IMG/VR virus record: IMGVR_UViG_3300023116_000009
Location: 122,088-186,087 of that record
Length of the DNA stretch: 64,000 nt
Strand: one strand, 5' to 3'
DNA from: a virus
The translations under genes were made by a program, and so were the position numbers. The notes under the pieces are model-generated. The model saw only the letters and a program-made list of their open reading frames with translations. It ran no database searches and had not been told where the DNA came from. Positions 19,404 through 44,357 of the stretch are shown one piece after another. Each line of letters begins with the position of its first letter. Within the stretch, counting starts at the first letter, position 1.

Positions 19404-20185
19404 AATCCATACCTTCCTTTTAAGTTATTGAACATCAGAGTATTTTCATCACCAGAAAGTGCCCTATTATAAATGTAAACACTTCCTAAAAATCCAGGGC
19501 ATGGACCATTGCCACCTAATGATCCATCGTTTTGAGTGCCCCCAAATACTCTGAATCCACTAGTGCTATAATTTCCATAAGATAGTCCTAATCCTGGTGT
19601 TGTTGGATTAGCGCCACCACCTTCTGTTTGTGGTCCAGTAATAATCTGAGTTTCATTTCTGTAGGCAGTTGCAATTCCAGTTGCTTGATCATAAGTATAT
19701 GTGTACATATTCCATCCATCTGCTGGAACACCTACAGGAGCAAAGTTTCCATTGATATATCTTCTATATCTATCTGTGTGAGTTGTAGAATAATTTAATA
19801 CATTACTCTGTTCTAATACACATGTAAGGGGAGATCCTGCAGTTCCACCCCCAGCGGTGCAAATAAGTCCTCTCCAATTATTATTAGCATTAACACTTAA
19901 TGGAAGATTATTTATATTCATCCATAATAGAAAAGTAATAGAACCAGTATATAATCTATCGTTAATCGGGGAAATTAGATGAGATGTTCCTTGCCCAGTA
20001 GAATTGGTATCACTTTGTACATAGTTAAATCCTACGGGTCCAGTTGCCGCAGTAAAATTATTAACTTGCCAATTTCCTACAGAACCCCTACTTGGGGCAA
20101 GTGAATTAATACCCACCCCATCATTTGATTCATATACATCTACGATCCCATCGTAGATGATATTGGGACCGTATTTAGTTGTCAT
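19400..20185 (-). CDS. LamG / concanavalin-A-like lectin domain protein
   Basis: YGPNIIYDG, SITFLLWMN, GWNMYTYTYD, GFLGSVYIYNRALSGDEN. Confidence 0.82.
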   Translation of the reverse strand: MTTKYGPNIIYDGIVDVYESNDGVGINSLAPSRGSVGNWQVNNFTAATGPVGFNYVQSDTNSTGQGTSHLISPINDRLYTGSITFLLWMNINNLPLSVNANNNWRGLICTAGGGTAGSPLTCVLEQSNVLNYSTTHTDRYRRYINGNFAPVGVPADGWNMYTYTYDQATGIATAYRNETQIITGPQTEGGGANPTTPGLGLSYGNYSTSGFRVFGGTQNDGSLGGNGPCPGFLGSVYIYNRALSGDENTLMFNNLKGRYGL

Positions 20186-23100
20186 TCCTGAACCTCCTTG
20201 ATTTCCATTTCTACTTCCATCTTAGGAACATCCTTACGTTCTGCCTGTACAAAGTAGAACGCCGCCCCGCCACCAGTCGTGATTGTATTATCAGCGACAT
20301 CAATTACCCAGCGATTGCCAGAGTCACCAATTGCAGTCAGCTGAACTGTAATGGTGTCTTCATCAACAAGTTGTAACCAGTAATCTGGTAATGTAATTAC
20401 ACCATCTGTGACACGTCCTCTGACGTATACACCATGCTCAGGACCCTCAAGTGAACCATGCTGAAGTTTGTAATTTTCCTTAGTTGGGTGATCGATAAGG
20501 AAGGACTTGCTCTTAGCAGAGAAAGTACCATTGATTGTCAGAGTATGTGTTGGAACATTAAGTCCAGTGTACATACCAACTCTTGATGTTGTTACATCAG
20601 CAGCATCAGATCTTTGATACATGCTGAATACATTATCACCAGCATGATTGGTGATTCTGAGAATATCGTTTGGAGTGATATTAGCATCATTCCAAATGGT
20701 CCACTTAACTTGACCTTGACGTGCAAGACCCATACCAATGTCTCTGTCAAACGCATTATCAATAGTCAAGAGTGATGGATAACCAGCATCAGTATCAAAG
20801 TTCTTAAAGAGAATACCTGCTGCTGAGGCAGCAGTAGCATAACCTCCACCACCAGTTGCGTTAACAGTCAGTTTAGAACCAATGTTTGCAGCAGTGACGC
20901 CGATACCGACATTACCGTTATAGCGGATTCTAACTCTCTCATAGAAATCACTATTGCGTACACCAAATACTAAGTCAGTTTGATAATCACCTGCCTTAAC
21001 TGCAGCAATTCGTGCAGAGGAGATTCTTGCGCCATCAGCCGCTCTACCTGCTTGTAACCACAGACCAGCAAACGTTGAAGAGTTTCCTGCCTCAGTATTG
21101 TATACTGCAAGTTCTTGTGGATATGGTTCATATGCATATTGACCACTAATACTTGCAGACCATGCGGTTGAATCAGTAACTTGCTGCTTCAACTGACCAG
21201 TTAGAGTACCACCAGAGAGTGGTAAGTTCTCAGATGCAGAACCAATCAGATCACCATATGCATTTCTAAATCCAATGTCACCATTTGAATCTCTAATTAC
21301 ACCCTTACTATTTGCTGCTGTATCATATGCAGCGTTGACTGTATCAATACCAACACCAAAGGTAATGTTACCTGCGTGCCAGATGTTATTACCATTAACT
21401 TGAGCGGCATTTGCTTGGAAGTTAATAGTACCAGTTCCAACAGTAGATGTACCGCCAGATGCAAGAATTCTTACATCGTAACCATTAAGATTAGGATCAC
21501 CATTTGGAAGTGTGAATGCATTACCGCTGGTTAAGAATCTAATCTGACCACTAGTTGCCTCTGCTTCATTACCTAAAGTAATTACTGGATTACCAGAACC
21601 ATCTGCATAGAGTTTGTGCTTATCAATAGAATAATCATCTACAGAAGTAATACCAAAGTCAGCAATTGGGAAGTAAGTTGCTGGTTCTACTGCAGTACCA
21701 AACTTGGTAACAGTTTCATTAAGAACACCAGAGATAAGTTCTGCTTGTACTTTTGTATGTGACAGTTGAGATGCTCTTGACCAAAATACTCCATTTTGAG
21801 TTCCTTCATCTGGACCATGAATTGGAATAATGTTTGGTCTTGGACTTACATATGTAAACCCAACGCTACCATCAGTTGCAGCACCAGTTGTATGTGATGG
21901 ACCATTGCCAGATGCTGAAGTCGTACCAGCAGTGGTTACCTCATAAAGATTTTGGTTAGCAAGTACTAAAGTACCAACACCCAGAACTAAGTTATTGTCA
22001 TATACAGTTGGAGTTCTGATGAAATCAACTGTAGTATAAATGTTGTTATTATACTGAACTTCTCTGCTAGGTGGAATACCTCTAGATACAAATCTGAAGT
22101 CAGCAGTACCATTAGTTACTGTACCACTTGTGTGATTCAGAGAAACGGTTCCAGATTCACCAGCAGTAGTTACCTCATAGAGGTATACATCTTCACCCAG
22201 AGTACCAGCAATGATAGTATATACTAATTGACCTTGTGAGTATAATGTTTCTGGATCAAAGTCAACTGCAGTTACATTGCTATAACCAAACTCCCAAACA
22301 TAATCTGCTTCGTATTCTGGAGTAACTTTTAGGACATTGACTGTACCTTGGTTGACGTTATTGTCAGTGTAGAGGTTTACTGTGAAGAATGTATCACCAT
22401 TTAAGTTTGCACTTGATCCACCAGTATCAAGCATTTGGAAGTCATCATATGTAAACAGGAGATTATCTACAGTGAATTCATAGATAACACCAGTATTGAT
22501 TTGAACTTGAGGATCAAATCTAGTAATTCTCAGAGAATCAGTAATTGATTTTGGTGAAAGATTGCCTGGCATCCTTCTGTTGCTCAGGTAACCATAATTC
22601 ATATTTGTGCCAGATCTTAAGAATGTATCTGACTTACCTCTTAAGAATGCAGCATCGAGAGTTGATCCAACACCATCATTACCACTGGACCATAACTTAT
22701 ACCAAGAACTCCACTGGTTTGCGTTAACCGATGCGAGAGTTGCAGTCAGTTCAGCAGAAAGAGATCCTGCATAATCAAATACTGCAGTACCACTAGTTGC
22801 TTGTGCAGAACCACTAGTATGAGTTGGTTCTTGAGTTCCTGCAGTACCAGCGGTAACTACATCATACAATCTACCAAATCCAATGGTTTCAGCAACAAAT
22901 ACCTTATCACCAATATTATAATTAGCACCTGAAGACCAGCGAATGTAACCAGAGTCATATTGACGACCATTATCAACACCAAAGATGTTTTGTGGAAGTA
23001 CACATGTAAATGTTCCTGGTGCATTACCAGTTTCATTATATCCATAACCAGTATCAACAATGGTTACATTAGTAATTTGCCCATTGCTTCCAACGGTAAT

Positions 23101-26100
23101 ATCTGCCTTAAGACCATGACCTTCACCACCACCAAGTTCTACTGATTTGTATTGACCAGGAGTGTAACCGTTACCTGCTTTAGAAATTGCAATGGATCCA
23201 ACAAAGTTTCCACCATGACCACGAATCCATTGGTTGTTATTATCGGTAAATGCAAACTGAGTAATTGCATAACCATCAAATGTAGTTCCAGTACCAATAC
23301 CTCTTCTAGTTGTGTACTTGGTATGGTCAGTTCCGCCGTCTAACAAACCATCATCGGCATTCTTCTTCCATGCTGCTGATGTTCCAAGTGGTGCGTTAGA
23401 TGGTGCAAGAGTTTGCTGTCTAACGTCAGAAATTGTAAGATTCAGTGCAGTACCTGATTGACCCGTAATGTCAATGATATATTCGCCAGAAAGGTAGTCA
23501 GGACCAAGAGTACCAGCATCAATGTTAGATGCGTCTGTATAGAACTCTTTATCTTCACCATCGAGTTGGTCAGCATCCAGACCAGACCCTGCACCCTCTT
23601 TGAGTGTCAATGCACCATCAGGTCCGAAATTCCATTGCTCTTTATAGAATCTCCAAACACCAAGGTTACTAAAGTCATCACCAGCAATGGTTAAGTTGTC
23701 ACCACGTTTGATGTCAATTGTAATATCATTAAAGATCTTAGATGTCTCTGCAACCTTTGCTTCCAGATCTGCATCATCATCTCCATTTGGATTTGTGATT
23801 GATGCAGGTAGTGTTGAAATAGAGAAGTCAGCGTTATAATTTAGACCTCCTTCTACAACAGCAACTCTTGAAATTACACCATCTGCAATAGTTGCTGTAG
23901 CAGCAGCACTGTTACCAACACCAGTGAATTCGATGTTAGGTGCAGAAGTGAATCCACTACCACCATCAAGAATTCTAATCTCGGTAACTGAACCATTAGT
24001 CGTAACTGCTTTTGCAACAACGTTAACCAGAACAGCACCATTATTATCTTTAAAAATGACCGTTGGTGGTTCTTCAGCAAATACAACTGGAGTAACGTTT
24101 TCGTCAACAACAAGGCGATAACCAGTACCACCGTTGGTGACTGCAATACTCTTAACAGCACCATCACTAACTGTGAAGTCGGCAAGGAATCCTTCTCCTG
24201 CTCCACCAACTACTTGTTGAGATTGTAAAGTTCCAGTTCCTCCACCCAAAGTAGAAATACCATAATTTTCACCACCGTCGATAATTTCAACAGATCCAAT
24301 ATATGTACTTCTTTGGTTTGAAGAACTGATAACAAGTGGTGTCTCTGCAGAATTCTTTCTGATAGAAGAAACAACAGGAACGAACTTAGAATCACCTCTC
24401 AGGTAAGTATTAGAACTTGCTGGATAATTAGAAGTAATGTTTGCTAATCTTGCTGGATTAATGACACCAGTGGTAATAGAACCAGCGTCAATATTAGTAG
24501 AAGTCAACTGAACCCAGTTTGAATCAAGTTGACCAGAAGTATTAACTACATTAGTAATTGCTACAGTTTGAGGTGTACCACTAAAATCTTGGATATCATC
24601 TGCAACTGCAAATTTAATATTACCAATGAGAATGAGTTCTAATCTACTTCTAATGACTAAAGATGCGTTTGCGCCAGCACCGCCAGTTCCAGTATTATCA
24701 AATATAATTGAAGGTGCAGTTGTATAACCAGAACCTCTATTCGTTACCGTGATAACAGAAACACGATTATTATCAATTTGTGCTGTGGCAGTTGCCGCAG
24801 TTCCAGCATACTCAAAGGTTACTGTTCCATCAGTAGCAGTGCCTGATGTATGAATTGGACCACCACCAGAAGAACTTGAAGTGCCAGCAACTGTTACTGT
24901 ATACAGATTTCCGTTGGCAGCAATTTGAGCACCAGCACTATAACCAGTGCTATTTGCATACTGAATACCAATTGTAACTGTTGGTGCTGTGGTATAACCA
25001 GATCCACCACTAATAACACTTACATTTGGTGATACTTCGCCATGAATATAGTAATTAACTGTACCTTGTCCATTAGAGGGAGTACCACTTACAACATCTC
25101 CATTTGAGAATGTATAAGTTGGGTCTGGAGTAAACTCAAGAATTTGAGCATAGGTATCATTGTTCAGAATGTAGGAGATATTGTTTGGTGCCAACTGAAT
25201 TGCAATGTCACCTGCAAGTGCTCCTTCCAGTGCAAGACGTGCTGCCAGATCTGCAACAGTAAAGACATTAAATGGTCTCAGTGCTGGAATCTGGTCAATA
25301 TTAATTCTACCAGTAGAATCTAACTGTACAAGGTTACCAGGAGATGGTGTTGTGCCATATGGTTTGTTCTTGTAGTTACCATAGTTATTGGTAATATATT
25401 CTCTAATTGATGCTTGAGTTGCCAGAATTCTATCACTATTCAGTTCGGTAGAACCAAGGGTAATATCACCAAGTTTCTCATCTCCAGAGAAACCAACAAT
25501 TTCAATATCACCACCCTTAATCTTCAGGAACGCAACTTCTTCAATTTCAACAGTACCACCAAAGGTGATGTTACCAGTTCTGTTTTCGATGTTAGCAAAG
25601 TAACCAACTTTAAAGTTACCGAGTTCGTCAGTACCTGATGCATAAACACGACCGTTAAGTTGAGATACCTGTTCGTAATCAGCGGTATCTTCAGATCCTC
25701 TCTTACCACCATTTTGTGGCAGAGCGTTATAGTCAACACCAGAACCAGAGAATTCCCACGTGTGAGAAGACGAGTTACAAATAGATGGTCTGTGGAGATT
25801 AATTGGGTGATTAATCAGTTTATAACGAGTTGAGTTATCAAGGATAAACTCACCATCATCTCTTTCTGCACCAGATGGAAGTGGAGTTGTAACTGTTGGG
25901 TTATCAAGAATTTCATCAATCAGAGTATTCAGGGTATCGATTGCTGCCTGAACGTTAGCACAATCAGAAGTGCTATACAGATCAGAAGCAGTTCCTACTT
26001 CACCCGCAGGTGAGGATACATCATGAATTACTGCAAGATCTACGTATGGTTTTACAGTTGTATACTGTGCAACATAGTATCCAGCAGTTGTTTCTGCTCC

Positions 26101-29100
26101 AGTTAGAGTAGTTCCAAACTCTTTAAGTTGGTTATTAATTGCTAACTTACAGAGAACCGTTGCCTGATCAAATACTGCTTTTGTTCCTGCAGCATAACCA
26201 GTAATGTGTGCAATGACACTATTTTCAATATATGATTTACCAGCATCCCAAGTAAATGCATTACCGTCATCTCTGATGTCATCAGCAATTGCCTGAACAA
26301 TCAGTTCAGTATCTCTGATGCACTTAGCATAATTTGCTTGGAATGAATATACATTGCTATACAGAACAGTATAGAATGCTTCTTCTGCAATGTACTTCTT
26401 ATTATTCTCAATAAGAACCGCAGCATCAGTGTATCTGTTTTCATTACCAATCAAACGCATTTGAGCATCTGCTTGTACTAATGCATCAGTATTGGTTGCT
26501 TGAATAACAGAATCAATAAAGTATTCTGGATTATTATTGCCTGATCTCAGAACGGGTTTGATGCCATCAACTTTAATAATATAGTGCTCTCTTGGTTCTG
26601 AATTCAATTGACTAATATCAAATGTTGGAGTACCAATGAGGTCAAAAGTAACATCATCAACTTTACCAACATCAAAGTTGTAAGGGTCTACTCTAAATCC
26701 AGTTGCTCTCAGTGAGTAAATACCAAAGTTAGATGCTGAGTTGGTCAGGGATGCATATCCACCACTTTCAACAACACAACCATCATAAGTAAAGATACAG
26801 AAGACCGAAACCAACTGAGTGTATCCATCGTTGATGACTCGATAACCAGTGCCGCCAAATGAGATGATCGTGAACGCAGCAGCAACCATCGACTTACCTT
26901 GTGGTGGCAGTCCAGGTCTGATAACGTTAGGATCAGCAACCTTAGCACCGTCAATCTCACATCCAGATCCACCAAGGAACGAGATTACTGAAGAGTTAAA
27001 GATGTATGGAGACGCTTCAATAATAGGAAGATCTAAGAAGTTTCTTGCAAAAGTAACAAACTTAGTTCCATTATCCTCAAAAGATTTTTCTGGTAAAGTT
27101 CTATCTGGTGCAGTTCCTCCAGAAATTACAGTATCAATAATACCGAAGTAAGTATAAATTGCAGAGGTTACATTTGCACAAACATAATCTCTATTTGCTT
27201 CATAAGTATTAGAGATTGTTGTATCTCTAAATGTAGTTTGTGTTGAAGTTCCTGCATTTACTAAGTTTGTAGAATAGTAGAACTTGGATGATGCTGTTGC
27301 AAACGAAACGAATGCATCATAACTAGAACCAAGAACCGTGAAGTTAATACCAGCACTATTTGCAACTTCAAACCATCTACGTCCATCGTAAGAGTTTAAA
27401 ATGCCATCATCAGTACTGATCCAGAACTGGTAACCATCATGATAAACTCTATTATTATTCTTACCTGCAGCAGTTCTTGTAATTCCAGTAAGGTTTCCAG
27501 GAGTTGCTGTAGTACCAATTGCTTGGTCTAAAATTGCAAACAGGTTTTGAATTGCAGTTGCTACGTTAGCACAATATGGACTGTTACTATCAATAGTGAC
27601 ATTGTTATCAAATGACTGAAGAAGACCTGAAGCATAATTCTGAACGTCAGATACTGCAAATGCTTCATTACGCATTGCTGCAATAGCAAAGGATTCTGCA
27701 TATCCGAATACTTCTGCAGATTCATCTTCTTCGCCAGAGACATGTGCTCCAGTTACATAAAGATTAGCAGCATCATATACTCTATCATTTCCACCATACT
27801 GTAAGTTAAGGACCATTGCTTCCAAGAAGTCCATAACATCATCTTTACATGCCTGATTGCCTGTAGGGATGCTAAATCCTTGATTGTTATCAAGCATCTT
27901 ATTTACAGACATCTCAGCAATTATTTGCTTGTTTGCTAAGATGAGGTCTGCAGCATCTCCGTATCTATCTGCTACAAACTCTGCGGCAATTCCAAGTTTC
28001 CAAGTTTGACCGTCTGTTGATGTATAAATTAAATCTCCTGAAGCAGCAATGAGAATATCCTCGTTTGCTGTAATTGAAGAGAATGTAGTTGCGGATGTAG
28101 TTCTTTCTGTCCATACAACGCCATCAGGTGAAGTGTATGCACTACCACCACTACCTACAGCAACAAACTGACTATTCTTATAATCCCAAATTACATCTTT
28201 TACAAGGTGTTGACCAGATCCATTAACAGGTACAAAAGAACCTCTTGCAGTCCATTCCTGACCGTTATCAGAAGAGAACCACTGAGGACCACCAAATCCT
28301 ACCCATTGCTCATCATCATCCCAAGCAATAGTACTAATTGATTGGGAACTGAGGTTGCCGCCTTGTGCAATTGCCCAATTTACGCCATTGCTGGAGGTAA
28401 TAATATATGCACCATCAGCACCACCACGACCACCAACAACAACAATTGTTTGTCCATTCCAAATAATATCATTCCATTGAGTTCCTGCGGTAATAGGACT
28501 TGTTTGTTGAGTCCAGGTAATACCGTCAGGAGAAGTTGCGATTAAACCAGCAGAACCAACGGCAATAAATTGTGTATTTACCCACTGTACTGCGTAGATA
28601 GTTGCGCCAATGGAATTTGCAATTGCAGTTAAGTTTGAACCATTCAGATATTGAATTCTATTTCTAATTGCAAGAACTGCTAGTTCTCTTGCTTGTTCAA
28701 ATGCATATCTGGTTTCTTCTAACTGACCATTAATATGAATTAAAGCATTGCCTTGGTAATAGTTATTTGCTGCTTCTAAGGTTGCAGCATTACCACCGTG
28801 AGACAAGTCATATTGAACAGCATTCAGAACGTGCTTAATATCTGTTTTGCACTGATCTTCATTTGGGATGATTAATGAAGAATATTTTGCCTTGGTTCTG
28901 ATTACTGCTTCATCTGCAATAAACTCTTTGTTCCTTCTAATAAGATCAGCACCATCTAAGAATCTGTGACCTTGCTTTTCGGACTCTTCAAATTTAAATG
29001 GTGAGTTCAGCAAACTGAACTTAACGTAGTTATCAGAGGAAGTTACAACAGCACCATATACAGTCAGAGAGAATGGTACTGCTTCCGATCCTAACTGTGA

Positions 29101-30708
29101 TGGAGTATCTTTGAATACTGCAAATACTTTACTAAATCCGTCTGATGACTCTACACGCTTAGTAACATATTGACGACCATTAAATCTATTGAGATCTCCA
29201 CCTGCACCAGAAGAGGGAAGATCTGAAAATTCTACCCATTGACCTTCTTCAAACGTATGATACTGCTGAGTTCTAAAGAATAACCAATCTGGATATGCAC
29301 TATCAAAATAGCAATTCTCAATCAAGTAATTAGGATGCTCAGTTACGTGCTCAGTAACTTCACCCTCTGGTCTTAATGATTTAATATTTGTTGCAACAAA
29401 TTGATACTGAGGAATGCTAGTATTAAAAGTAAATTCTGCTGTTCCATTTAAAGCAGCACCACTAGAGTGTGATGGTTCATTGGTTCCAGAAGTACCTGCA
29501 ACAGTAATGTCATATAACGTATTATCGATGAATACTTGATCACCTAAGTCATATGCAGTTTCTGGAGTCCATCTAATTGCACCTACTGCTGGTACAGGAG
29601 TATATTTAAAAGTATCACCTTGTTCTAATGCACCTCTTACAGTACCAACAGTGATGAATCCTTTGTCAACACTAGTTTGATCAGCAACATTTAAACTATC
29701 TGGTAATCCAAAACTTACCTCAGTAATGATTGCTCTACCGCCAGTTGCAACACCAACGATCTCATCACCAACTACAAAGACAGGATCACTAGTGCTTGCA
29801 CGGTCAAACTGAACCTGGAAAATACCTTCACCAAAAATTTGATAACCAATTGGGAATTCTCTACCAAATTGACCACCAAGAGTTTTATCATAATACATTC
29901 TTTGCTTATCGTCAAAGACGTAAGCATAATCCCAAGTACCAACAGGTTTTTCAAAACCATCAACTACTTCGATCTTGTCACGGAATGTGACACCGATCAT
30001 GTAGTTTTCATTCTGGTTTTTGAACATGTGCTTGTTCGGATTCTGCGGGCGAATAATGCAGAGACGAATGTTATCGCCCACAACCGAACATTTATCAGGA
30101 ATGGAGATTGGGTTATCTTCTAAGTAATCTCCACCTGCAACAATAAGGGTTTCCTTATCAGGAGTAGTACCAGCAATCTGTGCTGCCTTTTTAATCGTTC
30201 TTACTGGTTTCGTAGCAGAGCGACCATCAAAGTCATCGTTACCAATCTGCTCAGAAACATAAACACGACCACCAACGTCGTTAGTTGCAATGTTATAAAC
30301 AAAGTTTGTTGTTGCAACTTTGTTCGTATCATCATCAAAAGCAGGAGTTTCAGAAGTTGGGAAGAAGGTATCTCCAGTTTCTGGATCAACAAATGACTGA
30401 AGGTTAGGTGCTTTTAAATTAAGTTTTGGATTGACGATTGTGTCAATATCCAAGTTGTTAATTTTTGCAGTATCAGAAATGATAGAAGTGGTCGTTCTAA
30501 TCTGACCTTCAACATCAAGTTCATATTGTGGCGTTAAAGTATTAATACCAACACGAACCAGTTTGTCAACATCATCTGACAATTGAGAAAATAATGCCGA
30601 TTTTTCATCAGCACCACCACCCAATCTCAAATTCAAACTTGTATCGTTTTTGATCTTCAGAGAATTCGACTTAAGAATCTCCTTATCAGCATTAAATTCT
30701 AACGCCAT
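20182..30708 (-). CDS. Giant multidomain tail fibre / virion appendage protein (3508 aa)
   Basis: RVGINTLTPQYELDVEG fibre repeat; pectin-lyase-like beta-helix (VYVSEQIGNDDFDG...KPVRTIKKA, VVGDNIR, SPYIFNSSV); Asp-box propeller; three globin-like helical repeats; five His-containing repeats; C-terminal KSFLIDHP...HGSLEGPEHGVYVRG domain. Confidence 0.88.
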   Translation of the reverse strand: MALEFNADKEILKSNSLKIKNDTSLNLRLGGGADEKSALFSQLSDDVDKLVRVGINTLTPQYELDVEGQIRTTTSIISDTAKINNLDIDTIVNPKLNLKAPNLQSFVDPETGDTFFPTSETPAFDDDTNKVATTNFVYNIATNDVGGRVYVSEQIGNDDFDGRSATKPVRTIKKAAQIAGTTPDKETLIVAGGDYLEDNPISIPDKCSVVGDNIRLCIIRPQNPNKHMFKNQNENYMIGVTFRDKIEVVDGFEKPVGTWDYAYVFDDKQRMYYDKTLGGQFGREFPIGYQIFGEGIFQVQFDRASTSDPVFVVGDEIVGVATGGRAIITEVSFGLPDSLNVADQTSVDKGFITVGTVRGALEQGDTFKYTPVPAVGAIRWTPETAYDLGDQVFIDNTLYDITVAGTSGTNEPSHSSGAALNGTAEFTFNTSIPQYQFVATNIKSLRPEGEVTEHVTEHPNYLIENCYFDSAYPDWLFFRTQQYHTFEEGQWVEFSDLPSSGAGGDLNRFNGRQYVTKRVESSDGFSKVFAVFKDTPSQLGSEAVPFSLTVYGAVVTSSDNYVKFSLLNSPFKFEESEKQGHRFLDGADLIRRNKEFIADEAVIRTKAKYSSLIIPNEDQCKTDIKHVLNAVQYDLSHGGNAATLEAANNYYQGNALIHINGQLEETRYAFEQARELAVLAIRNRIQYLNGSNLTAIANSIGATIYAVQWVNTQFIAVGSAGLIATSPDGITWTQQTSPITAGTQWNDIIWNGQTIVVVGGRGGADGAYIITSSNGVNWAIAQGGNLSSQSISTIAWDDDEQWVGFGGPQWFSSDNGQEWTARGSFVPVNGSGQHLVKDVIWDYKNSQFVAVGSGGSAYTSPDGVVWTERTTSATTFSSITANEDILIAASGDLIYTSTDGQTWKLGIAAEFVADRYGDAADLILANKQIIAEMSVNKMLDNNQGFSIPTGNQACKDDVMDFLEAMVLNLQYGGNDRVYDAANLYVTGAHVSGEEDESAEVFGYAESFAIAAMRNEAFAVSDVQNYASGLLQSFDNNVTIDSNSPYCANVATAIQNLFAILDQAIGTTATPGNLTGITRTAAGKNNNRVYHDGYQFWISTDDGILNSYDGRRWFEVANSAGINFTVLGSSYDAFVSFATASSKFYYSTNLVNAGTSTQTTFRDTTISNTYEANRDYVCANVTSAIYTYFGIIDTVISGGTAPDRTLPEKSFEDNGTKFVTFARNFLDLPIIEASPYIFNSSVISFLGGSGCEIDGAKVADPNVIRPGLPPQGKSMVAAAFTIISFGGTGYRVINDGYTQLVSVFCIFTYDGCVVESGGYASLTNSASNFGIYSLRATGFRVDPYNFDVGKVDDVTFDLIGTPTFDISQLNSEPREHYIIKVDGIKPVLRSGNNNPEYFIDSVIQATNTDALVQADAQMRLIGNENRYTDAAVLIENNKKYIAEEAFYTVLYSNVYSFQANYAKCIRDTELIVQAIADDIRDDGNAFTWDAGKSYIENSVIAHITGYAAGTKAVFDQATVLCKLAINNQLKEFGTTLTGAETTAGYYVAQYTTVKPYVDLAVIHDVSSPAGEVGTASDLYSTSDCANVQAAIDTLNTLIDEILDNPTVTTPLPSGAERDDGEFILDNSTRYKLINHPINLHRPSICNSSSHTWEFSGSGVDYNALPQNGGKRGSEDTADYEQVSQLNGRVYASGTDELGNFKVGYFANIENRTGNITFGGTVEIEEVAFLKIKGGDIEIVGFSGDEKLGDITLGSTELNSDRILATQASIREYITNNYGNYKNKPYGTTPSPGNLVQLDSTGRINIDQIPALRPFNVFTVADLAARLALEGALAGDIAIQLAPNNISYILNNDTYAQILEFTPDPTYTFSNGDVVSGTPSNGQGTVNYYIHGEVSPNVSVISGGSGYTTAPTVTIGIQYANSTGYSAGAQIAANGNLYTVTVAGTSSSSGGGPIHTSGTATDGTVTFEYAGTAATATAQIDNNRVSVITVTNRGSGYTTAPSIIFDNTGTGGAGANASLVIRSRLELILIGNIKFAVADDIQDFSGTPQTVAITNVVNTSGQLDSNWVQLTSTNIDAGSITTGVINPARLANITSNYPASSNTYLRGDSKFVPVVSSIRKNSAETPLVISSSNQRSTYIGSVEIIDGGENYGISTLGGGTGTLQSQQVVGGAGEGFLADFTVSDGAVKSIAVTNGGTGYRLVVDENVTPVVFAEEPPTVIFKDNNGAVLVNVVAKAVTTNGSVTEIRILDGGSGFTSAPNIEFTGVGNSAAATATIADGVISRVAVVEGGLNYNADFSISTLPASITNPNGDDDADLEAKVAETSKIFNDITIDIKRGDNLTIAGDDFSNLGVWRFYKEQWNFGPDGALTLKEGAGSGLDADQLDGEDKEFYTDASNIDAGTLGPDYLSGEYIIDITGQSGTALNLTISDVRQQTLAPSNAPLGTSAAWKKNADDGLLDGGTDHTKYTTRRGIGTGTTFDGYAITQFAFTDNNNQWIRGHGGNFVGSIAISKAGNGYTPGQYKSVELGGGEGHGLKADITVGSNGQITNVTIVDTGYGYNETGNAPGTFTCVLPQNIFGVDNGRQYDSGYIRWSSGANYNIGDKVFVAETIGFGRLYDVVTAGTAGTQEPTHTSGSAQATSGTAVFDYAGSLSAELTATLASVNANQWSSWYKLWSSGNDGVGSTLDAAFLRGKSDTFLRSGTNMNYGYLSNRRMPGNLSPKSITDSLRITRFDPQVQINTGVIYEFTVDNLLFTYDDFQMLDTGGSSANLNGDTFFTVNLYTDNNVNQGTVNVLKVTPEYEADYVWEFGYSNVTAVDFDPETLYSQGQLVYTIIAGTLGEDVYLYEVTTAGESGTVSLNHTSGTVTNGTADFRFVSRGIPPSREVQYNNNIYTTVDFIRTPTVYDNNLVLGVGTLVLANQNLYEVTTAGTTSASGNGPSHTTGAATDGSVGFTYVSPRPNIIPIHGPDEGTQNGVFWSRASQLSHTKVQAELISGVLNETVTKFGTAVEPATYFPIADFGITSVDDYSIDKHKLYADGSGNPVITLGNEAEATSGQIRFLTSGNAFTLPNGDPNLNGYDVRILASGGTSTVGTGTINFQANAAQVNGNNIWHAGNITFGVGIDTVNAAYDTAANSKGVIRDSNGDIGFRNAYGDLIGSASENLPLSGGTLTGQLKQQVTDSTAWSASISGQYAYEPYPQELAVYNTEAGNSSTFAGLWLQAGRAADGARISSARIAAVKAGDYQTDLVFGVRNSDFYERVRIRYNGNVGIGVTAANIGSKLTVNATGGGGYATAASAAGILFKNFDTDAGYPSLLTIDNAFDRDIGMGLARQGQVKWTIWNDANITPNDILRITNHAGDNVFSMYQRSDAADVTTSRVGMYTGLNVPTHTLTINGTFSAKSKSFLIDHPTKENYKLQHGSLEGPEHGVYVRGRVTDGVITLPDYWLQLVDEDTITVQLTAIGDSGNRWVIDVADNTITTGGGAAFYFVQAERKDVPKMEVEMEIKEVQE
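25880..28965 (-). repeat. Three protein-level helical repeats (phycobiliprotein/globin-like) in the 3508-aa protein; boundaries approximate
   Basis: Shared pattern R(F/Y)xD(G/A)AxLIxxNKxxIA, CxxD..GGN/DGN, LA(I/M)xN and CANVxxAI. Cys codons at 28849 and 27178 (repeat 1), 27847 and 27571 (repeat 2), 26320 and 25960 (repeat 3). Confidence 0.85.
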
Positions 30709-31921: not shown

Positions 31922-34900
31922 TTATCTCTTAACAGTGTGGGAAACGATCTTAATATTGTATGTAGTTCTGTTCTCAATAGCAGAGGCAAAACTTACAGTT
32001 TCATCTGCAGATGCAGAAATGTTACTGGTTGTAGAAGCACTGGTAACAAAGATATCATGTAAATCACCATTGCCATCTGCTCTAGTTCCAATAAAGATTA
32101 CATCCAAATCACCAGCATTGAGTAGATTGCCATCATAATTAACTGGTTGATCTAATGCTGCATAAGTTCTGGATCTGGAGGTATAACTTAAAGTATCACC
32201 ATCAGCAATGATAACACCTTGAATATTTTGCTCTCCATCATTAGTCGAGGAGTAATCCAACGCTACGTTGAACAAGAATTGCCCATCTGCAGGATTGCTT
32301 GCTACACTGAAGATTTCAGAATCAATACCAGTAGAAACTACTAATCCAACTTCTGACAGATCACTCAGATCATAATATCTTGCTTGAATTTGAGAAGTTG
32401 AAGTATCATAGTACATCTTCAATACTCTGGTCGTTCCAACTACTGCCCACTGAACACCATTACCAGAACCGATACCAACAGTGGTTACTGCAGTTAATGT
32501 TGAACCATTAACAGAATACTTTCTAACTACTCCTGAAGTAAAGTTTACATATAAGTAAGTGCCGTCAGTAAATGCATCTTGCAGTCCAGTACCACCAAGT
32601 AATAGAGATGGGGTTGACCAAGATACGCTATTAGTAGAACCGCCAGTGACAGTTCCGTTTACTTGATATACTCCAGAAGTAGTATGATAAACAATAATCA
32701 TTCTTCCATTAACACTCAAGATTCTGCATGTTCTTGCATCTCTACCACCATTTAAGCTATAAATCAGAATACTATCAGAGGTAAATGTGCCAAGCGATCC
32801 AAATGTGATATTACTATTATTAGGGTCTACGTCCCCAACAATATAATCTCCACTGTTTGACGCCCATACGATTCTATTTGTTGCAGAATCAAATGCCATA
32901 GAAGCATGATCAGAATTGCCAGTAGCAGTTAACGGAATTTGTGTGCCAAAAACAACACCATTATCACTTACTGTACCAACTCTAAATCCACCAGTAGCGA
33001 AATTGGCATTGTCATTGGCATAAATTACAACTCTATCTGCATCGGTATCAATAACTGATGCAATATTTTTAGTAAAGAATGTTGAAGACGTAATATCTGC
33101 AGATCTTTCTGCTGCAACAGGAATGTAAGTATCTGTTGCACTTCCAAGTTCGGTAACTCTTACTTGAACATTTGAACCTGACAGATCTGCTTCAATGTCA
33201 GCAAGAACTACATCAGTATACAATTTATTACTTTCAGTATAAATGATATCTTCACCATTACCTCTGATTAAGTAAGAAACTTCAGAGTATTGCTTTCTTG
33301 GATATGCATCTGGAATTGGGAACTGCTCTTCAACCTCAACCATAAATTTACCTGACCATGCTTCTGCCCATGGGAACATAGTTGCAGAAACAATGTTACC
33401 AGCAGCAGCATCTAAAGTAGATGTTTGAGTAAAGATCTTAGTGTTTGCAAGTTCCAGTTTTTGAAGACCTGCATCAAGAACAGTTAAGTAATTGTCTGCA
33501 GTAGAAGAGAATCCTCTATTGATTTGCAGAGCACCACCATTGGTTAACTTAAGAAGTTGATAAGAATCTGAAGATGCTGGTTCAAATCCAAATGTCAATG
33601 CGTCTCTATCAGTTTTAATGATTTCGTCAGTTGCACTAGAAGTAATCTCTAATTGATTAGTGCTAATAGTGAACTTGCCATTAACATTTAAGTTGACATT
33701 ATCAACATTGGCGTTCAAATTATCATATCTGTAAGACCAATATTCAAGATTATCAACAGTTCCTGATGTGTGGGTTGGAGCAACAGTTCCTGTAGTGTGA
33801 TCAGCAGTAATCCTATAAAGATTATCACCTGAGTAAATATATTGCTGAACAGTCAGAACATCATCAAGATCTGCTGTAAACTGAGTTACATCAGTTTCTG
33901 GAGTCCATTCAATACTGTTTCCTTCAGCGTTAGAATTAATAGTGTTGAGAGTATCAAGATTTAACTCAGTTTGACTTACTCTTAATGTTTGAGTTCCGTC
34001 ATTAAAGAACCAAACATTATTATCATCATTACCAGGAGATCTCTCACCGATTACAAAAGTATTTCCATCAACGTCTCTTACACCACCGAGAGAAACAAAG
34101 TAATTTCCATTGTATCCTTCAAATTGATTTCTGTCAGTATTATATCTTACAGAACCTTGAAGAGGACCACCAGGGCGATTTGCATCAGTACCGACAGGAA
34201 GTGCAAGTGCTCCAGTTCCACTAATTACAACTTGAGAATTTGCCTCAGCACTTAATGTTAAATCGCCAGCAGTTGTTGAAATTGTATTATTGTTGAGTAA
34301 CAGTGTAGTTGCAATTTCAACGCCATCAGGAGATGCAACGAGTTTCTTAGCAGTGACTACACCATCTACAGCATCAAACTGAATATTATTAAATTCAGCA
34401 AGAGAATTGACTGTCAGGGAGAATCCTGCAGGGAAGTATCCATTATGAGCAATAGTTGCAGTTCCATTTGTTACAGAACTTGCAATGGATGATACTGTAA
34501 AGTTAGCGCCAGAACCATTAGTCAATGATTGGACAACAATTGTAACCGTGGTTGGATCATCTACAGGATCTCCACCCTCTTCTGGATCGCCACCGCCACC
34601 GCCACCAAACAGAGAACCATCAAATTCAATCAGTTCACCAACTTGATAACCAATACCATTGGAAAGAATTACTGCAGATGAAATATTTCCAGTAGCATCT
34701 GATGTGAATCTAATTAAAATATTTGCACCTGTTCCACTAGTTCCAGTTTGATTCAAATCGTAAGTTTGTGTGTCACCATATGCACCATTATCACCACCGC
34801 TTGCAATAGCAATTGTTGCAGCACCCGTATTGATATAGTCATTATCCAGAGTAAATGCATCCCCGACTTGGAATAAATCACCAGAGAGATTGCCACTTGG

Positions 34901-37900
34901 ACTAATAGAAGTTACTGTACCCGCACCATTGGTGGTAATGTCTACAAGAAGACCAGTTCCTTCACCAGTGGTTGCTTCACATTGAACGCCTTCAATTGTT
35001 GCACCTGAAGGATAACCAGAACCACCACTAACAGTGTTGATACCAGAAACGCCATCTTGTCCAAATGATGGAACTACAGTTCCAGTGGTTCCAGCGCCAG
35101 TTACTTCATATGCGTACTCACCAGCATAAAATTCTTGTCCAACACTTACTGCTGCTTCTGTTGGGAATAGTGTAAACCCAAGTGCTGCAGCGTCATAGTA
35201 ACTTGATGGAAGATCAAGAACGTCATCTACAGAATAACCAGCACCGAGGTCAACAACATTTACATATGAGACCGAATTCAATCTCTTTACAGTATATTCT
35301 ACTGGAACTGCTGGAGCAGAAATTGTTGTTAACAGACCTGAAGTTGGATCAGTATACTGCATGTCTGTGTAGTTAACTGTGAGAACATCTCCAATTAAAT
35401 ACCCAGAACCTGGAGAAGTAATGTTAAATTCAGTAACAACTCCACCTTCAACCAAAATCCTTGCTTGTGCATTAGAACCTGTTCCTGTAGCACCGATATT
35501 ATTAACTCTAATAGCGAACCCAGATCCAGTAGACACAGTTTGTGCTGAGAATGCTGCACCTGAACCATATGTTACTGATGCAATATTAATCTGTCCAACC
35601 ATACTTGCATGGTTACCACAAATATAATAATAAGTTCCAGGAACTGTTAAAGAAGTATCAAAACTTACAGTGCCACTTTCTGCACCATTATTAGTTGCTG
35701 GGAGAACATATGCAGCGTTAAATCCATTAGTTTGTGCATCTAATTGAGATACCAAATAGAATGGGTGACCAGCAGCACTTACTGAGAATGAAATAGTATC
35801 TCCAAGGTTTACATTGATACTTGGATTGCTTGCACTGGTGTATGTGGTGTTTCTATCATCACCACTAATTACATAGTTAGTGCTACCATTGTTTGTAACT
35901 GTATATGTGAATGTCAGGTTTTCATACAGGTCTGAATCTGCAACAGTAAAGGTATCAGAGGTTGTATATCCACCACCACCTTGATTAACAGTTGCAGACG
36001 TTACAACTCCACCAGACACTACAACGTTAGCAGTAGCACCAGATCCAGAACCTAACGTGTTTACTAACGCAACATCACTATAAGTACCATCTGGATAACC
36101 AGTTCCTGCTAAAGAAACTCCAAGAGTTCCAGAAAGTTTACTTCCTCCAACATTAGCAGTATCAACACCAAGAAGATCCGATACTGCATATCCAGAACCT
36201 CTAGAGTTAATAACAACAGAAGTTACTTGACCATTTTCAATAGTAAAGTCGCCTGTTGCTGAACTTCCAGTTCCTGCAGTAAGAGCAACGTTGAAATAAG
36301 TTCCATCAACATACCCACTACCTGGGGTGAGTGTTCCAAATACAGTGATTGCACCAGATGCAACACTTACATACTGAACTGGAACGTTTAAATATTCCTC
36401 ATTATAATAACCAGATCCTGGTTGTGTAATATTACCAGTAAACGCAACTGTTACATTTGCAGTAAAGTCAGCGCCAGTACCACCTCTGAAAAGAACATTA
36501 TTAGTAGTGCCAATTGTATATCCTCTACCTGGAGTAATTGTATATTCATCAATTGCTTTATTGATTAAATCTACTGGTTTGAAGAAACTAATCTGCTGAG
36601 TAGTTTGCTTCATGATAGGACCATTATATCCTACCGTAGTAATTTCATTAAGATTGCTCTTATAGAAACCAAGTTTTTCGTCGCTATCAAAAGTAATTGA
36701 TGGAGCAATCTCTGTGCCATCATTAACTAAAATTCTACCATCAAATCTACTATCACCAGTTACAGTAAATTTCTCATCAAATGTAGATGAGATGTCATCA
36801 GGTCCTGGATCAGTTCCGATGCTTACAACCGATCCAGCATCAGTTGCTAAGAATACGTGATTATAAATTTTAGCGGTGCTATTAACTTCAAATGTATAAT
36901 CTTCAATGACTACTGGGTCTGTGGGTCCTAAGATACTAACTTTATTATTAGTAGCATCAATTTGGAGCAGATCGGTGTCAAATGCTACACTTGCACCAAT
37001 CTGTGATGGATTATTTGGATCTCCAACTACGGTCAATCTACCGTTTGTACCAAGGTCTCCTTGGACAGTAAGGTTGCCAGAAGTTCCAATGCCACCAGAA
37101 GCAGTTAATGTACCACTAACTGTAAGATTCTGAGCACTAACTGTTGATAAAGTTGTTGTTCCAAGTGCTGAGAAATTTTCATTGACAGTAACGTTGGTAT
37201 TGAATGTACCACCTTCTGCGGTAATATTACCTGTTTTTGTCAGCGAAAGGAAGTTTTCTAATAATGCTGTACCAATAGCAATGGATCCATTTTGACCATA
37301 CTCGGTATCTGCAGTAGTGTCAATGGAGTTGCCCATTCCAGAGTGAATGGTGCAATAGTAGTATAGAGTTCCTGGAGTATCACCAGTTACAATAATATAA
37401 GCACCGTTGTTACCATTTAATGGTCCAGATAACGTAGTATATGCTGTTCCACCATTATGAATACCATCATTAGTTTCTGAGATTGTAAATGGATGATCAG
37501 CGTATGTTGCCGTATATGTTGCGTCTGGAGTGACTGTAAATCTGTAAAGTGTATCCTTATTTAAAGTTAAAGCAGGCGCTTCTACATATCCACTACCAGT
37601 GTTAATCCAGTAGGCATTACCACCACCGCCAGATTTGGGGCGAATCTGAACATTGTATGTTACGGTTGTACCAATACCAACCAGGGTATCATTGGAAGCA
37701 AGTTCAAAGTAAGGTTGAACTAATTCACCTGATAAATATCCTTCACCTGCAAGTGCATCATCTGTTCCTTCATCAACAATATTGGCACTGCTCAGGAATT
37801 GAATATTGCTAAATTCAAATACAAATCCATTTCCACCACCAGGAACAGTTGCAGTAATTGCATCTCCAATAGTATATCCAGTTCCACTCCAAGTTCCAGA

Positions 37901-40900
37901 TGGAGTAACAGAAGTTACAGTATATGAATTTGACGGTACAGTATATGCAAATCCAGCACCACCACTAGTAAATTGATTTCCTTCTTCATCGAAGTAAATC
38001 AAATTCGAATTGTTTATTGTCAGAGTATCACCAGCAGTATACCCACTATCGCCATCATCACTAATATTGATCTCAGTAACTACTCCACCGCTAACAGTAA
38101 CAGTTGCTACTGCTCCTGTTCCTGTACCTCCATTTAAAGGTACTGTTGCATAAATGTTATCAGTGTATCCAGAACCACCAGTAATTGTACCACCTGAAAT
38201 ACCTTTTACCGTTACTGTACCAGTTCCTCCAGTACCAGTTCCTGTTTGTTGGTTTTGACCTTGAACATTTGTAAATGAAAGGTTATTATAAACTCCTGCA
38301 ATATAACCAGAACCTGCTTGAGTTACTTGACCAGCGAATGCAGTTACTGTTACATCAACTCTAAGACCAGTACCCGATCCTCCAGTAACTGGAATATTGG
38401 TATATGTTCCAGGAAGGTATCCAATACCTGGAGTACCAACAGAAACTGTTTCTGGAATTGAAGATGAGATATTAATATCAGTAAGAGATCTTACTTCACC
38501 AGGAGCAATTCTTAATACAGATCCACCATTAGAAACTAAATCATAGTATCCATCTCCAAGATCAATTGGTTTTCTAATACCAGTATCTTGATCACCATCA
38601 AATGCCAAAGAAAGGCGAGTGCTTCCAGAAGTAAAGGTTTCCAGATTAACTCTTTGATTCAGATTAATCTCATTACCAGTAAATGGTGTCAGGTTAATAT
38701 TACCTGAAGTTGTAGAAATCGTATTACCGAAGAAGGTAAACGCACCGACCTCAATGGACGTTGGAAGGATCGTGGTGGTGTCTGAACCAGCAGATACGAG
38801 CAATTGGTCAAAACTAGTTCCAGCGCCTGCTCCAGCGCCTCCAGACCCAGCAAAGGAAAGGGTTCCCTTCTCTTGGTCAACCAGGAAAAGATCGCCTACA
38901 CGGAAGTCGCCACTCTGGTCAACAGAGGTAAAGAATACACGACCATTATTTTGTTCAATGACTTCGTTTGACTGTACAACCAAACTAACGTCGTTATTAT
39001 CATCCTTACCGACGCCAATGTATCCAAAGTTATGACTGATAAGACGTAAACTTACACCCTGACCATTTGCACTAGCACCACGCTCACCATAAACGTTTGC
39101 AGATGCAATTGAGCGAAGTTCTGCACCAAACTTGGTATAATCTGCAAGGGTTACAAATGTTGCAGTTCCGCCAGCAGTGGTTCTAACATCTTGAGCAACA
39201 ATACTATCATCAACAAATACAGCAGCACCATTTGTGCCCTCCATATGGAGCAGCAGAGCAGTATCATTATCTGCTAAAAACTGAACTGTGGTTGGTGTAA
39301 ATGCTGCGTTATATCTTGAAGAACCCTTAGTTACTCTAACTTCATCAATATAACCATTCAATCCAGCACTTCCATCATATGCTGCACCAATTGTTAAACC
39401 TCTTGTTGGGAAGTCATTACCGTCAGTGTAACTAGAACCAACTTGAGTGCCGTCTACGAATAACTTACTTACGCCAGAAGTTCTTGAGAGTGCAATATGG
39501 TGCCAAGTAGATGCAGTTAATGCAGCAGAACCTGTGATTACAGCAGCGCCATTAACATAATATACAAGATCTGATCCAGAAATATTAACTACTGGTGAAA
39601 TTTCTGTTGGTGATGCTGATCTAAAGTCAAAGATAGTTTTAGCACCAGAAGTATTGTTGAGGTAGATAAATGCTTCTAATGTAAATTCGCCAGTACTAAA
39701 GTTGAAATCTGGATCTGATGGTACTGTTAATCGATCATCAGTTCCATCAAATGCTGCAGAAGTTGAACCAAGTTTAACTTGAGTTGTGCTGGTTACTACA
39801 TTGTCAACTGCAGAAACATTCTTACCTGTTGTTTCGTCAGTTGCAATGATACGACCTTCACCTTTTCCATCCAAATATACATAAGTACCATCATTTTCAT
39901 CAATGGTTCCATAACCACTGGTCTTTAAATAGTTTAAGTTACCAGCACTTGCAGTGCCAGCAAAGATACCATCAATGACAAAACTATTGCCTGTCGTTAC
40001 TGATGTAATTTTATGGAATTCTGTTACACCACTCTGAGCGCCAGAAGTAGTATTGATGTAGACAAGATCCCCTTGTGCCAGTCCATGACTGGATGAGGTG
40101 ATCGTCATTGTTAAATTATCATCTGCACCACTAGTTGTATATGCAGCAGTTACTTGAGATACGCCTGCTTCAATTAAACCAACTTGGTTACCAGATCCAG
40201 CAGTAAAGTCGCCAGATTCCCCTTGGAGATTCAGTCGAGTTCTCGCTACTCCACCAAGACCAGTACCACCGTCTGGACTTTCTCCTAAAATACCATCTTG
40301 TGCATAATATGTGAATGAGTTTAACCATTCACAACGAGCACCATTTTTAAGATATAAACCAACTGAATTAGGTACAACAAATGTACACTCATTGAAAAGA
40401 ATGGATGCTTCAATAGTGCTTGAATTGGCAACAGAACCATCAATTAAGGCACCTCTACCAGCATCACCTTGATTATAACCTCTAGGATCGGATGCAGAAG
40501 TTACAGAACCTTTTGTGAGGACACTGACTCTCTCAATATAAGGTCTTCTTTCAGTAAGAGTAAAGTTTGATGCTAATCTGAAACCATATCCAGTATCATT
40601 AGAAGCATTATAGTAGAAGTTTCTAATGGTAATGTCTTCAATATTAGCATTACCGAGAAGAAGGAAGCAGTCAAGATCTTGAGTGGCAACGGTTGGTTGA
40701 ATAAAAACAGATTTAATTCCACGTCCCTTAATAGAAACATCAACTGGTACGGTTAATGGAAACTCCTCAGTGTAAGTACCACCTTCAACTACAATAGTAT
40801 CACCCGCTTGAGCAAAGTTCTCAAGGGCATACTTGAGTGAAGCAAATGCGGTGAACTCTGTTGCACCCCATGCGTTTGCCCCTGTCGTTGACCCATGGCG

Positions 40901-43550: not shown

Positions 43551-43759
43551 CAGAATGATCCTCCGTTAACTGTTACGTTATTTAATACGTTTGTTGTTTG
43601 AAATTTTTGCGTAGTTGCATTATAAACCATAACGTATCCTTCACCTAAACCTTCAGTTACAGTATCAACATCTGCGAGATTTTGAAGTGTCGCAGCACCG
43701 CCTACAGCAACTCTAGAAACCTGTGGAAAACTTTGGTCTCCAAATCTTACTCTGGCCAT
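43550..43759 (-). CDS. Small structural-type protein
   Basis: LQNLADVD...EGYVMVYNATTQKF repeat module and C-terminal NGGSF. Confidence 0.75.
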   Translation of the reverse strand: MARVRFGDQSFPQVSRVAVGGAATLQNLADVDTVTEGLGEGYVMVYNATTQKFQTTNVLNNVTVNGGSF

Positions 43760-43760
43760 T

Positions 43761-44099
43761 TTAGATTGTTACTCCTTCTACTACCGTTAACACACCTTCC
43801 AGCACTCTGGATTTAATCCCGTCTGGAGCGGTAAGAACTACATCATAAACATACTTACCAGGAGTCATTGCAGAGGTAACTGCATTTGAAAGTGAAAGTT
43901 TCACTGCTCCAACTGACGCTGGAGGTGTAATCTCAACTACAATTGAAGTTGAAGTCGAGCTTTCATAATGCTTCTTAATTAAAGAAGCACCAGAATAACC
44001 AGTCAAATCAAAGTTCTGACCATTATCTTTACTCACATAAAATGTGGTTTCAAAATCAGCACCTTGATATACAATTAAGTTAGTTACCGCAGATAACAT
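43761..44099 (-). CDS. Conserved Ig-like virion protein (QGADF family)
   Basis: NLIVYQGADF, FDLTGYS, GKYVYDVVLT, RVLEGVLTVVEGVT. Confidence 0.8.
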   Translation of the reverse strand: MLSAVTNLIVYQGADFETTFYVSKDNGQNFDLTGYSGASLIKKHYESSTSTSIVVEITPPASVGAVKLSLSNAVTSAMTPGKYVYDVVLTAPDGIKSRVLEGVLTVVEGVTI

Positions 44100-44117: not shown

Positions 44118-44357
44118 TCAAGTATTTATACCACTCATTAATTTAAGTAAAAGGTTTTTGATTTCATCAATCTCACCTTTTAGTTCTTCCACTTGATGAA
44201 TAGCATACTCTAATTTTTCCTCTTTATTTTTATTAGAGTTTCTATTATGAATATACTGTTCGTATTCTGATTTATTTGTATTAATAATTGCACCAGTTTG
44301 AGGGTCTCTGGCAAGATTGCCATGACCCTCTACTGGGATCAAGCTAGGGCGATGCAT
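44118..44357 (-). CDS. Hypothetical coiled-coil protein typical of T4-like cyanophages
   Basis: IPVEGHGNLARDPQTGAIIN...LKGEIDEIKNLL. Confidence 0.8.
   Translation of the reverse strand: MHRPSLIPVEGHGNLARDPQTGAIINTNKSEYEQYIHNRNSNKNKEEKLEYAIHQVEELKGEIDEIKNLLLKLMSGINT
44123..44130 (-). promoter_or_regulatory. Late promoter TATAAATA
   Basis: Perfect consensus 24 nt upstream of the 112-aa ORF. Confidence 0.8.

Follow-up and report, generated by a model that had tools for sequence, protein, structure and literature searches.

Divergent phycobiliprotein-type domains repeated within a predicted giant fibre protein of a T4-like cyanomyovirus

Phycobiliproteins (PBPs) are known as the antenna proteins of cyanobacteria and algae and, recently, also as small bacterial globins that bind bilins. 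In the core-membrane linker ApcE a single PBP domain carries its bilin on a differently placed cysteine. Among the bilin biosynthesis-associated globins (BBAGs), BBAG-1 and BBAG-3 retain the C-x-R-D motif and need no lyase to bind bilins (Rockwell et al. 2023, PMC10151467). Lyases of the T type act at the Cys153 position (PMC10452541). Here we analyzed a stretch of 64,000 nucleotides of viral DNA (the window), positions 122,088 to 186,087 of the IMG/VR record IMGVR_UViG_3300023116_000009, in which a first reading of the sequence (the initial annotation) had proposed three PBP-like domains with both bilin-attachment cysteines inside a giant phage fibre. The protein concerned has 3508 amino acids (aa) and holds three copies of a helical domain of 155-185 aa each, named R1 to R3 below; in it the PBP fold would serve as a building block of the virus particle. 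Unless stated otherwise, coordinates are window positions on the minus strand.

For the profile comparisons we collected 68 related viral loci, iterated a hidden Markov model (HMM) of the family and aligned 36 diverse full copies. The PBP reference set comprised 24 real PBPs from five cyanobacterial genomes. Comparison of the 36-member alignment with this set by hhalign gave a probability of 94.5% and an E value of 8.4e-8 over helices A to G, and a global hhalign of the subset bearing the second cysteine against beta subunits covered 130 columns, with helices A to H in order (E 3.3e-8). When the profile of the 36 copies was run against all PDB sequences, 59 of the 60 best matches were PBPs; the top match was CpcA (E 3.6e-4), and the K-C-x-R-D of the family fell on its K-C-A-R-D (Cys84). 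R3 searched as a single sequence against the PDB gave nothing meaningful, and the identity between the domain and PBPs is 14-20%. In Pfam, PF00502 was the only family to match R1 and R3 (E 0.016 for either copy and 0.004 for the complete protein). It also matched 13 of the 36 diverse members at E<=1 (best E 1.9e-6), and no other family recurred. The proposed PF00502 relationship was recovered for R1 and R3 (15.6 and 15.7 bits; 17.5 for the whole protein), but these scores stay below the Pfam gathering cut-off of 22.2 and R2 had no match. Judged by its profile scores, the domain of the window is a remote homologue of PF00502, below Pfam-level membership. Together with the template-free model described below, the sequence profiles bear out the claim of a PBP-type domain, and we consider it very nearly certain that the phage modules are divergent homologues of PBP subunits. 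Against single PBP classes hhalign found none to be closest, the domain being about equally far from all; capture from a host beta subunit is one possible origin.

An AlphaFold2 model of R2, computed without templates from phage sequences only, reached a predicted local distance difference test (pLDDT) score of 89 and a predicted template modelling (TM) score of 0.88. The best Foldseek matches of this model were all phycoerythrin or phycocyanin beta chains (TM scores 0.66-0.77). With VIA-align it superposed on residues 28-184 of Phormidium phycoerythrin beta with Z 17.0 and a root mean square deviation of 2.1 Å, 146 of 158 residues being aligned. The next structural matches were allophycocyanin (Z 14.6) and the bilin domain of ApcE (4xxi_A, Z 14.1), and globins other than PBPs gave Z 8.5-11.3. 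The alignments begin at PBP residue 28-38 and nothing precedes helix A in the domain. By both programs the predicted fold is a PBP-type globin, with phycoerythrin beta as the best match in VIA-align. The N-terminal X/Y helices are absent. The initial annotation had supposed a PBP-type globin domain without these helices. According to this model the modules have a beta-type globin fold without X/Y helices.

The two bilin sites are recognizable in all three copies. The first cysteine (Cys1) aligns with Cys84 of CpcA and Cys82 of CpcB, and the Asp at +3 aligns with Asp85. The second (Cys2) falls on beta-Cys153 and the Asp of the R-x-x-D motif on beta-Asp39 in the global hhalign, an assignment made by alignment only. 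The alignment places the beta-Cys82 equivalents at the codons of Cys620 in R1 (28849-28851), Cys954 in R2 (27847-27849) and Cys1463 in R3 (26320-26322), and the beta-Cys153 equivalents at those of Cys1177 in R1 (27178-27180), Cys1046 in R2 (27571-27573) and Cys1583 in R3 (25960-25962). The Cys82/Asp85 and Cys153/Asp39 equivalents claimed for the three copies were thus found again both by position and by profile alignment. Six of the 15 cysteines of the 3508-aa protein stand at Cys1 or Cys2 sites, and the Arg of C-x-R-D is found in the window in R3 only.

Conservation was assessed on 225 distinct copies, taken from viral contigs and from the window itself. Of 171 copies, 162 have Cys1 (95%) and 166 have the Asp at +3 (97%), which places both among the best-kept residues of a family whose copies are only 15-25% identical. 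An Arg stands at +2 of Cys1 in 110 of the 171 (64%) and an Asp in 49. Cys2 occurs in 78 of 119 copies and is always accompanied by Cys1; at other positions of the domain cysteine makes up 0.23% of residues. Cys1 stands alone, with no other cysteine, in 23 of the 90 full copies and so cannot in general serve to form a disulfide within the domain. No conserved proximal His of the haem type was found in the 36-member alignment.

Every motif of the three repeats quoted in the initial annotation was located in its place within the 3508-aa open reading frame (ORF). R3 is complete (aa 1421-1605; 25894-26448; HMM positions 2-160, E 1.3e-40) and contains the full C-x-R-D as Cys1463-Ile-Arg-Asp1466, with Cys1583 and Asp1428. 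R2 is likewise complete (aa 911-1068; 27505-27978; HMM positions 3-159, E 2e-50), contains Cys954-x-x-Asp957, Cys1046 and Asp918, and lies inside R1. The N-terminal part of R1, helices A to G (aa 579-705; 28594-28974; HMM positions 2-130, E 1.5e-38), carries Cys620-x-x-Asp623 and Asp585. Its C-terminal part, consisting of the end of the G-H loop and helix H (aa 1145-1199; 27112-27276; HMM positions 109-160, E 9e-8), carries Cys1177, with the motif at 27186-27124, so that the fourth block of R1 comes about 440 aa past its third. The order of the HMM matches (2-130, a full copy 3-159, then 109-160) indicates that R2 and about 280 beta-rich residues are nested in the G-H loop of R1. Those residues form two halves lying between the HMM matches, one before R2 (aa 706-910; 27979-28593), which is beta-rich with strands in a low-confidence model, and one after it (aa 1069-1144; 27277-27504). 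A model of the nested segment (aa 575-1205), built on a 2-sequence alignment, had a mean pLDDT of 38 and could not be used, except that the succession of helices, strands, helices, strands and a last helix in it agrees with the nesting. In BLASTP the N-terminal part of R1 matched R3 with E 4e-17 and R2 matched R3 with E 2e-8, at about 30% identity. The same genome has, beyond the window, one more copy of the domain, the fourth, encoded by a separate ORF of 1875 aa (43529-43915 of the genome sequence, minus strand; E 2.6e-27).

No Pfam family matched the insert in the R1 G-H loop. On both sides of R2 (27979-28593 and 27277-27504) it contains repeated segments ending in patterns such as S-P-D-G-x-x-W-T, and the pattern S-x-D/N-x-G-x-x-W has one match in it; these segments may be propeller blades.

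The giant ORF (3508 aa; 20182-30708) encodes a predicted tail-fibre-type virion protein. phrog_5342, annotated as tail fiber protein, matches it at 1860 bits and phrog_4527, annotated as short tail fiber protein, matches it too. The genes adjoining the ORF match baseplate wedge families, and the left end of the window carries T4-type genes for gp23, scaffold, prohead protease and portal. Homologues of the protein in isolates are annotated as gp7 baseplate wedge initiator, short tail fibre or virion structural protein. The parent virus record is 186 kb long and 99% complete according to CheckV. By family name and synteny we assign the protein as a probable virion fibre of a T4-like cyanomyovirus, and the initial proposal of a giant phage fibre agrees with its tail-fibre PHROG matches and its place among baseplate and head genes. 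Megablast of the domain region against GenBank phages gave no match.

Further features of the fibre and its surroundings were observed. The C-terminal 150 aa of the fibre (aa 3358-3506; 20182-20640) match phrog_28536 and phrog_17490, both of unknown function, and form a conserved fibre-end domain. A motif of about 45 aa (L-Y-x-V-T-x-A-G-T-S/A-G…P-x-H-T/S-x-G) recurs in at least four copies, at aa 404, 1941, 2620 and 2927, and CBM_5_12 matches weakly at aa 380-410 (E 0.11); these may be carbohydrate-binding repeats. The window has three further giant minus-strand ORFs, at 31922-41173 (3083 aa), 44339-50647 (2102 aa) and 52175-62524 (3449 aa), and the PBP-like domain is absent from all three. 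The 3083-aa ORF matches baseplate wedge families, and the PHROG matches of the 2102-aa ORF are only to families of unknown function. The same virus record carries psbA, which is 96-97% identical to psbA sequences on contigs of two 'cyanobacterial' metagenome-assembled genomes, Synechococcus sp. ChBW.bin.23 and Cyanobacteriota casp40-mb.195; these contigs may be of phage origin and have been binned together with a host.

We next examined how the domain is distributed. Searching 50,697 GenBank phage records with tblastn returned 328 matching records for R2 and 80 and 221 for two highly divergent members of the family. The matched records were Synechococcus or Prochlorococcus phages or were named 'Cyanophage', the exception being one 'Marine'-named record in each of the divergent-query searches. 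In a fold search of BFVD the significant named matches were likewise Synechococcus phages or uncultured Caudovirales. Among 1.84 billion representative proteins, 1708 clusters matched the profile, 735 of them at E<=1e-30. The best 150 of these clusters are nearly all giants, of up to about 7000 aa and with up to 36 copies, and ten giant relatives that were looked up were all metagenome 'hypothetical protein' entries. A scan of 185,579 prokaryote genomes for the family motifs found no relative, with a sensitivity limited to two peptide patterns. In the literature on phycobiliprotein-like domains in phages, PF00502, and bilin with virion and baseplate, we found no description of the domain.

We then looked at genes related to bilins. 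This genome has a PebA/PebS-like reductase and CpeT, and a haem oxygenase was not found in it. A scan for psbA, bilin reductase and haem oxygenase in 50 viral contigs gave no information, since every one of these contigs is a fragment 8-48% complete. Of 17 reference cyanomyoviruses, 14 have the domain, which is absent from P-SSM2, S-SM2 and S-SSM7. The cpeT gene is present in 12 of the 17, all 12 of them domain-bearing, and the three phages without the domain have no cpeT (Fisher p = 0.015, a hand calculation on 17 genomes uncorrected for relatedness). In S-PM2, S-RSM4, S-CAM3 and Syn1, which belong to four genera, cpeT lies 1-1.5 kb upstream of a domain-bearing 'short tail fiber' gene on the same strand. 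A domain-bearing fibre gene directly follows cpeT in 19 of the 31 phage cpeT loci with enough downstream sequence. Upstream cpeT was also seen in 18 metagenomic contigs, in seven of which a bilin reductase lies just upstream of cpeT. In one metagenomic relative, genes for CpeT, the reductase, a small ORF and CpeT directly precede the giant domain gene; they share its strand and follow a gp5-like gene. The S-PM2 RefSeq record (NC_006820.1, 165928-177267) places 16 tRNA features within the ORF of the 3792-aa 'short tail fiber protein'. This ORF is open over its whole length, and the coordinates given in the record seem to be at fault.

The homology to PBPs and the retention of both pigment-attachment cysteines imply that the virus particle may carry pigment. 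We infer, with a confidence that falls a little short of even, that the fibre modules are still biliproteins and carry bilin. Late in infection, bilin would be drawn from the host pool or from the phage PebA/PebS-like reductase. It would be thioether-linked to Cys1 in the C-x-x-D or C-x-R-D motif of helix E; the link could form without a lyase, as it does in BBAGs, or through a lyase of the host. Cys2, which immediately precedes helix H and has the R-x-x-D Asp as its partner, would hold a second bilin; a phage CpeT-type lyase could load it, since beta-Cys153 is the target of that lyase class. Virions would then leave the cell with a few pigments on their fibres. What purpose the pigment would have is the weakest part of this reading, the candidates being light sensing that gates adsorption and stabilization of the domain.

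Several observations weigh against bound bilin. In the domain itself, besides the sub-threshold PF00502 scores, another residue takes the place of Arg84 in R1 (C-K-T-D) and R2 (C-K-D-D), and 29% of copies have an Asp there. In both hhalign alignments the B-E loop is 7 residues shorter than in PBPs and lacks Asn72 and the Arg77/78 stretch. The Asp39 equivalent, which occurs in 45 of 45 copies with Cys2 vs 9 of 33 without it and is the column most tied to Cys2 (raw Fisher 5e-13), would speak for a second bilin site, but the tie amounts to about four changes on the tree, has no power as an independent statistic and marks a subfamily. The fibre gene of this genome is separated from cpeT and the reductase by 30-70 kb, and cpeT is missing from two domain-bearing phages, S-ShM2 and P-SSM7. 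Nor does the distribution of bilin synthesis genes follow that of the domain: P-SSM2 and S-SSM7 lack the domain but have both reductase and haem oxygenase. The cpeT-fibre island is variable and also holds tRNAs, denV, HNH and 2-oxoglutarate oxygenase genes, and the adjacency of cpeT and fibre may reflect shared ancestry and inherited position instead of function. Finally, a divergent clade of the domain occurs in jumbo phages of roughly 300-380 kb (CheckV completeness estimates) with unknown hosts.

Four other explanations were weighed against bilin binding. The PBP fold could be an apo structural module, a rigid helical bead or spacer without bilin, in which the Cys and Asp serve folding, bonds between chains or domains, or metal binding. 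This is a serious possibility, which we nevertheless regard as somewhat doubtful. Tandem arrays of as many as 36 copies, in giants reaching about 7000 aa, resemble the building of a shaft, and the domain tolerates huge insertions and nesting. In PBPs the bilin propionates are held by B-E loop residues that the phage domain has lost; this loss and the frequent loss of Arg84 point the same way, and pigmented virions were not reported in the literature found. On the other hand, the lone Cys1 of 23 of the 90 full copies cannot make an intradomain disulfide, and Cys1 and the Asp at +3 outlast most core positions among these divergent copies. The two kept sites also appear, by alignment, to be the two bilin sites of the beta subunit with their aspartates included, and cpeT co-occurs with the domain in 12 of 12 phages. 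Alternatively, the cleft could bind another ligand, for instance a lipid, a molecule of the host surface or a tetrapyrrole other than bilin, and Cys1 would be the residue that reacts with it or binds it; the domain would then have a role in host recognition and not in light biology. Globin-like folds bind varied ligands, the next structural matches include haem sensors, RsbR and photocobilin globins, the pocket-lining loop is unlike that of PBPs, and the same fibre has the carbohydrate-binding-like repeats. Yet PBPs are clearly the nearest structures (Z 17 vs 11), the kept motif is the bilin motif C-x-R-D (PMC10151467), the family does not conserve the proximal His of haem proteins and the named hosts are all bilin makers, and we therefore hold another ligand to be unlikely.

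A role inside the cell before assembly seems to us very unlikely. The domain would act there as a sink or decoy for host bilins or lyases and alter phycobilisome turnover, its presence in the virion being incidental. Cyanophages do carry other genes aimed at the phycobilisome (nblA, cpeT and pebS), and among named phages the domain is limited to cyanophages. Its location in giant late structural baseplate or fibre proteins, and not in early or metabolic genes, argues against such a role, as do copy numbers and nesting that suit architecture over stoichiometric titration. Convergence or chance, in which an unrelated helical bundle would have a fortuitous C-x-x-D, is largely refuted and hardly credible. 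The identity to PBPs is low, the window copies score under the Pfam cut-off and structural scores are inflated for helical folds. But the specific and mutually independent profile tests were significant (the PDB search, the hhalign E value of 8e-8 and the PF00502 matches of 13 of 36 members), the alignment runs through helices A to H in order over its 130 columns, and Z 17.0 is well over the helical background.

If the modules are biliproteins, the fibre domains could further be a virus-borne photoreceptor, in which bilins on Cys1 and Cys2 absorb light and change the fibre or baseplate, so that adsorption takes place only in light. We regard this extension as rather unlikely. P-HM1, P-HM2 and S-PM2 depend on light for adsorption but not on photosynthesis by the host, and P-SSM2 and P-SSP7 adsorb in the dark (PMC6628666). 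The domain is present in P-HM1, P-HM2 and S-PM2 and was found in neither P-SSM2 nor P-SSP7, a correspondence that comprises about two independent cases per side. If true, the photoreceptor would account for the unexplained light-dependent adsorption of the first three phages and for the CpeT-type lyase in cyanomyoviruses, even in those of Prochlorococcus.

The PBP fold appears to have kept both pigment sites under strong selection. It is present in 14 of 17 reference cyanomyoviruses, and 1708 clusters of giant proteins from metagenomes contain it. Virions with loaded sites would be pigmented, which we have not seen described for any phage. Two old puzzles, the purpose of phage cpeT and the need of some cyanophages for light during adsorption, become directly testable. 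Even without pigment, this is a clear reuse of a photosynthesis-related fold as fibre architecture, with nesting of domain in domain.

The closest known counterparts of the phage domain are the PBP beta subunits CpeB and CpcB. Like them it has globin-type helices A to H, a long G-H loop and a helix-E Cys with an Asp at +3 and often an Arg at +2; by alignment it also appears to share the second Cys just before helix H, paired with a helix-A Asp. Unlike PBP subunits, it lacks the X/Y helices and would thus form no antenna-type alpha-beta heterodimer. PBP subunits are free proteins of 17-20 kDa, whereas the phage domains are repeated and nested modules of a 3508-aa virion protein. Globin-coupled sensors, the RsbR N-domain and photocobilin globins have the general globin-like fold in common with the phage domain, but their structural scores are lower, they give no sequence signal and their haem-binding His is not kept in the phage family.

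BBAGs are, like the phage domain, PBP relatives outside light harvesting and are a precedent for a bilin globin that is not part of an antenna. They are small bacterial proteins adjoining haem oxygenase and reductase genes, whereas the phage domain sits in a giant fibre. Synechocystis salina has a 157-aa PBP-like protein with C-R-R-D and a weak PF00502 match (E 1e-14), probably a cyanobacterial BBAG of the slr0149 type. Compared as a single sequence with the phage profile, this BBAG-like protein gave a weak match (E 0.0011, probability 20%). In ApcE, as in the phage fibre, a PBP-type domain with a loop insertion is part of a large multidomain protein. ApcE is a component of the cellular antenna, whereas the phage fibre has several copies of the domain, with the cysteines at the canonical positions.

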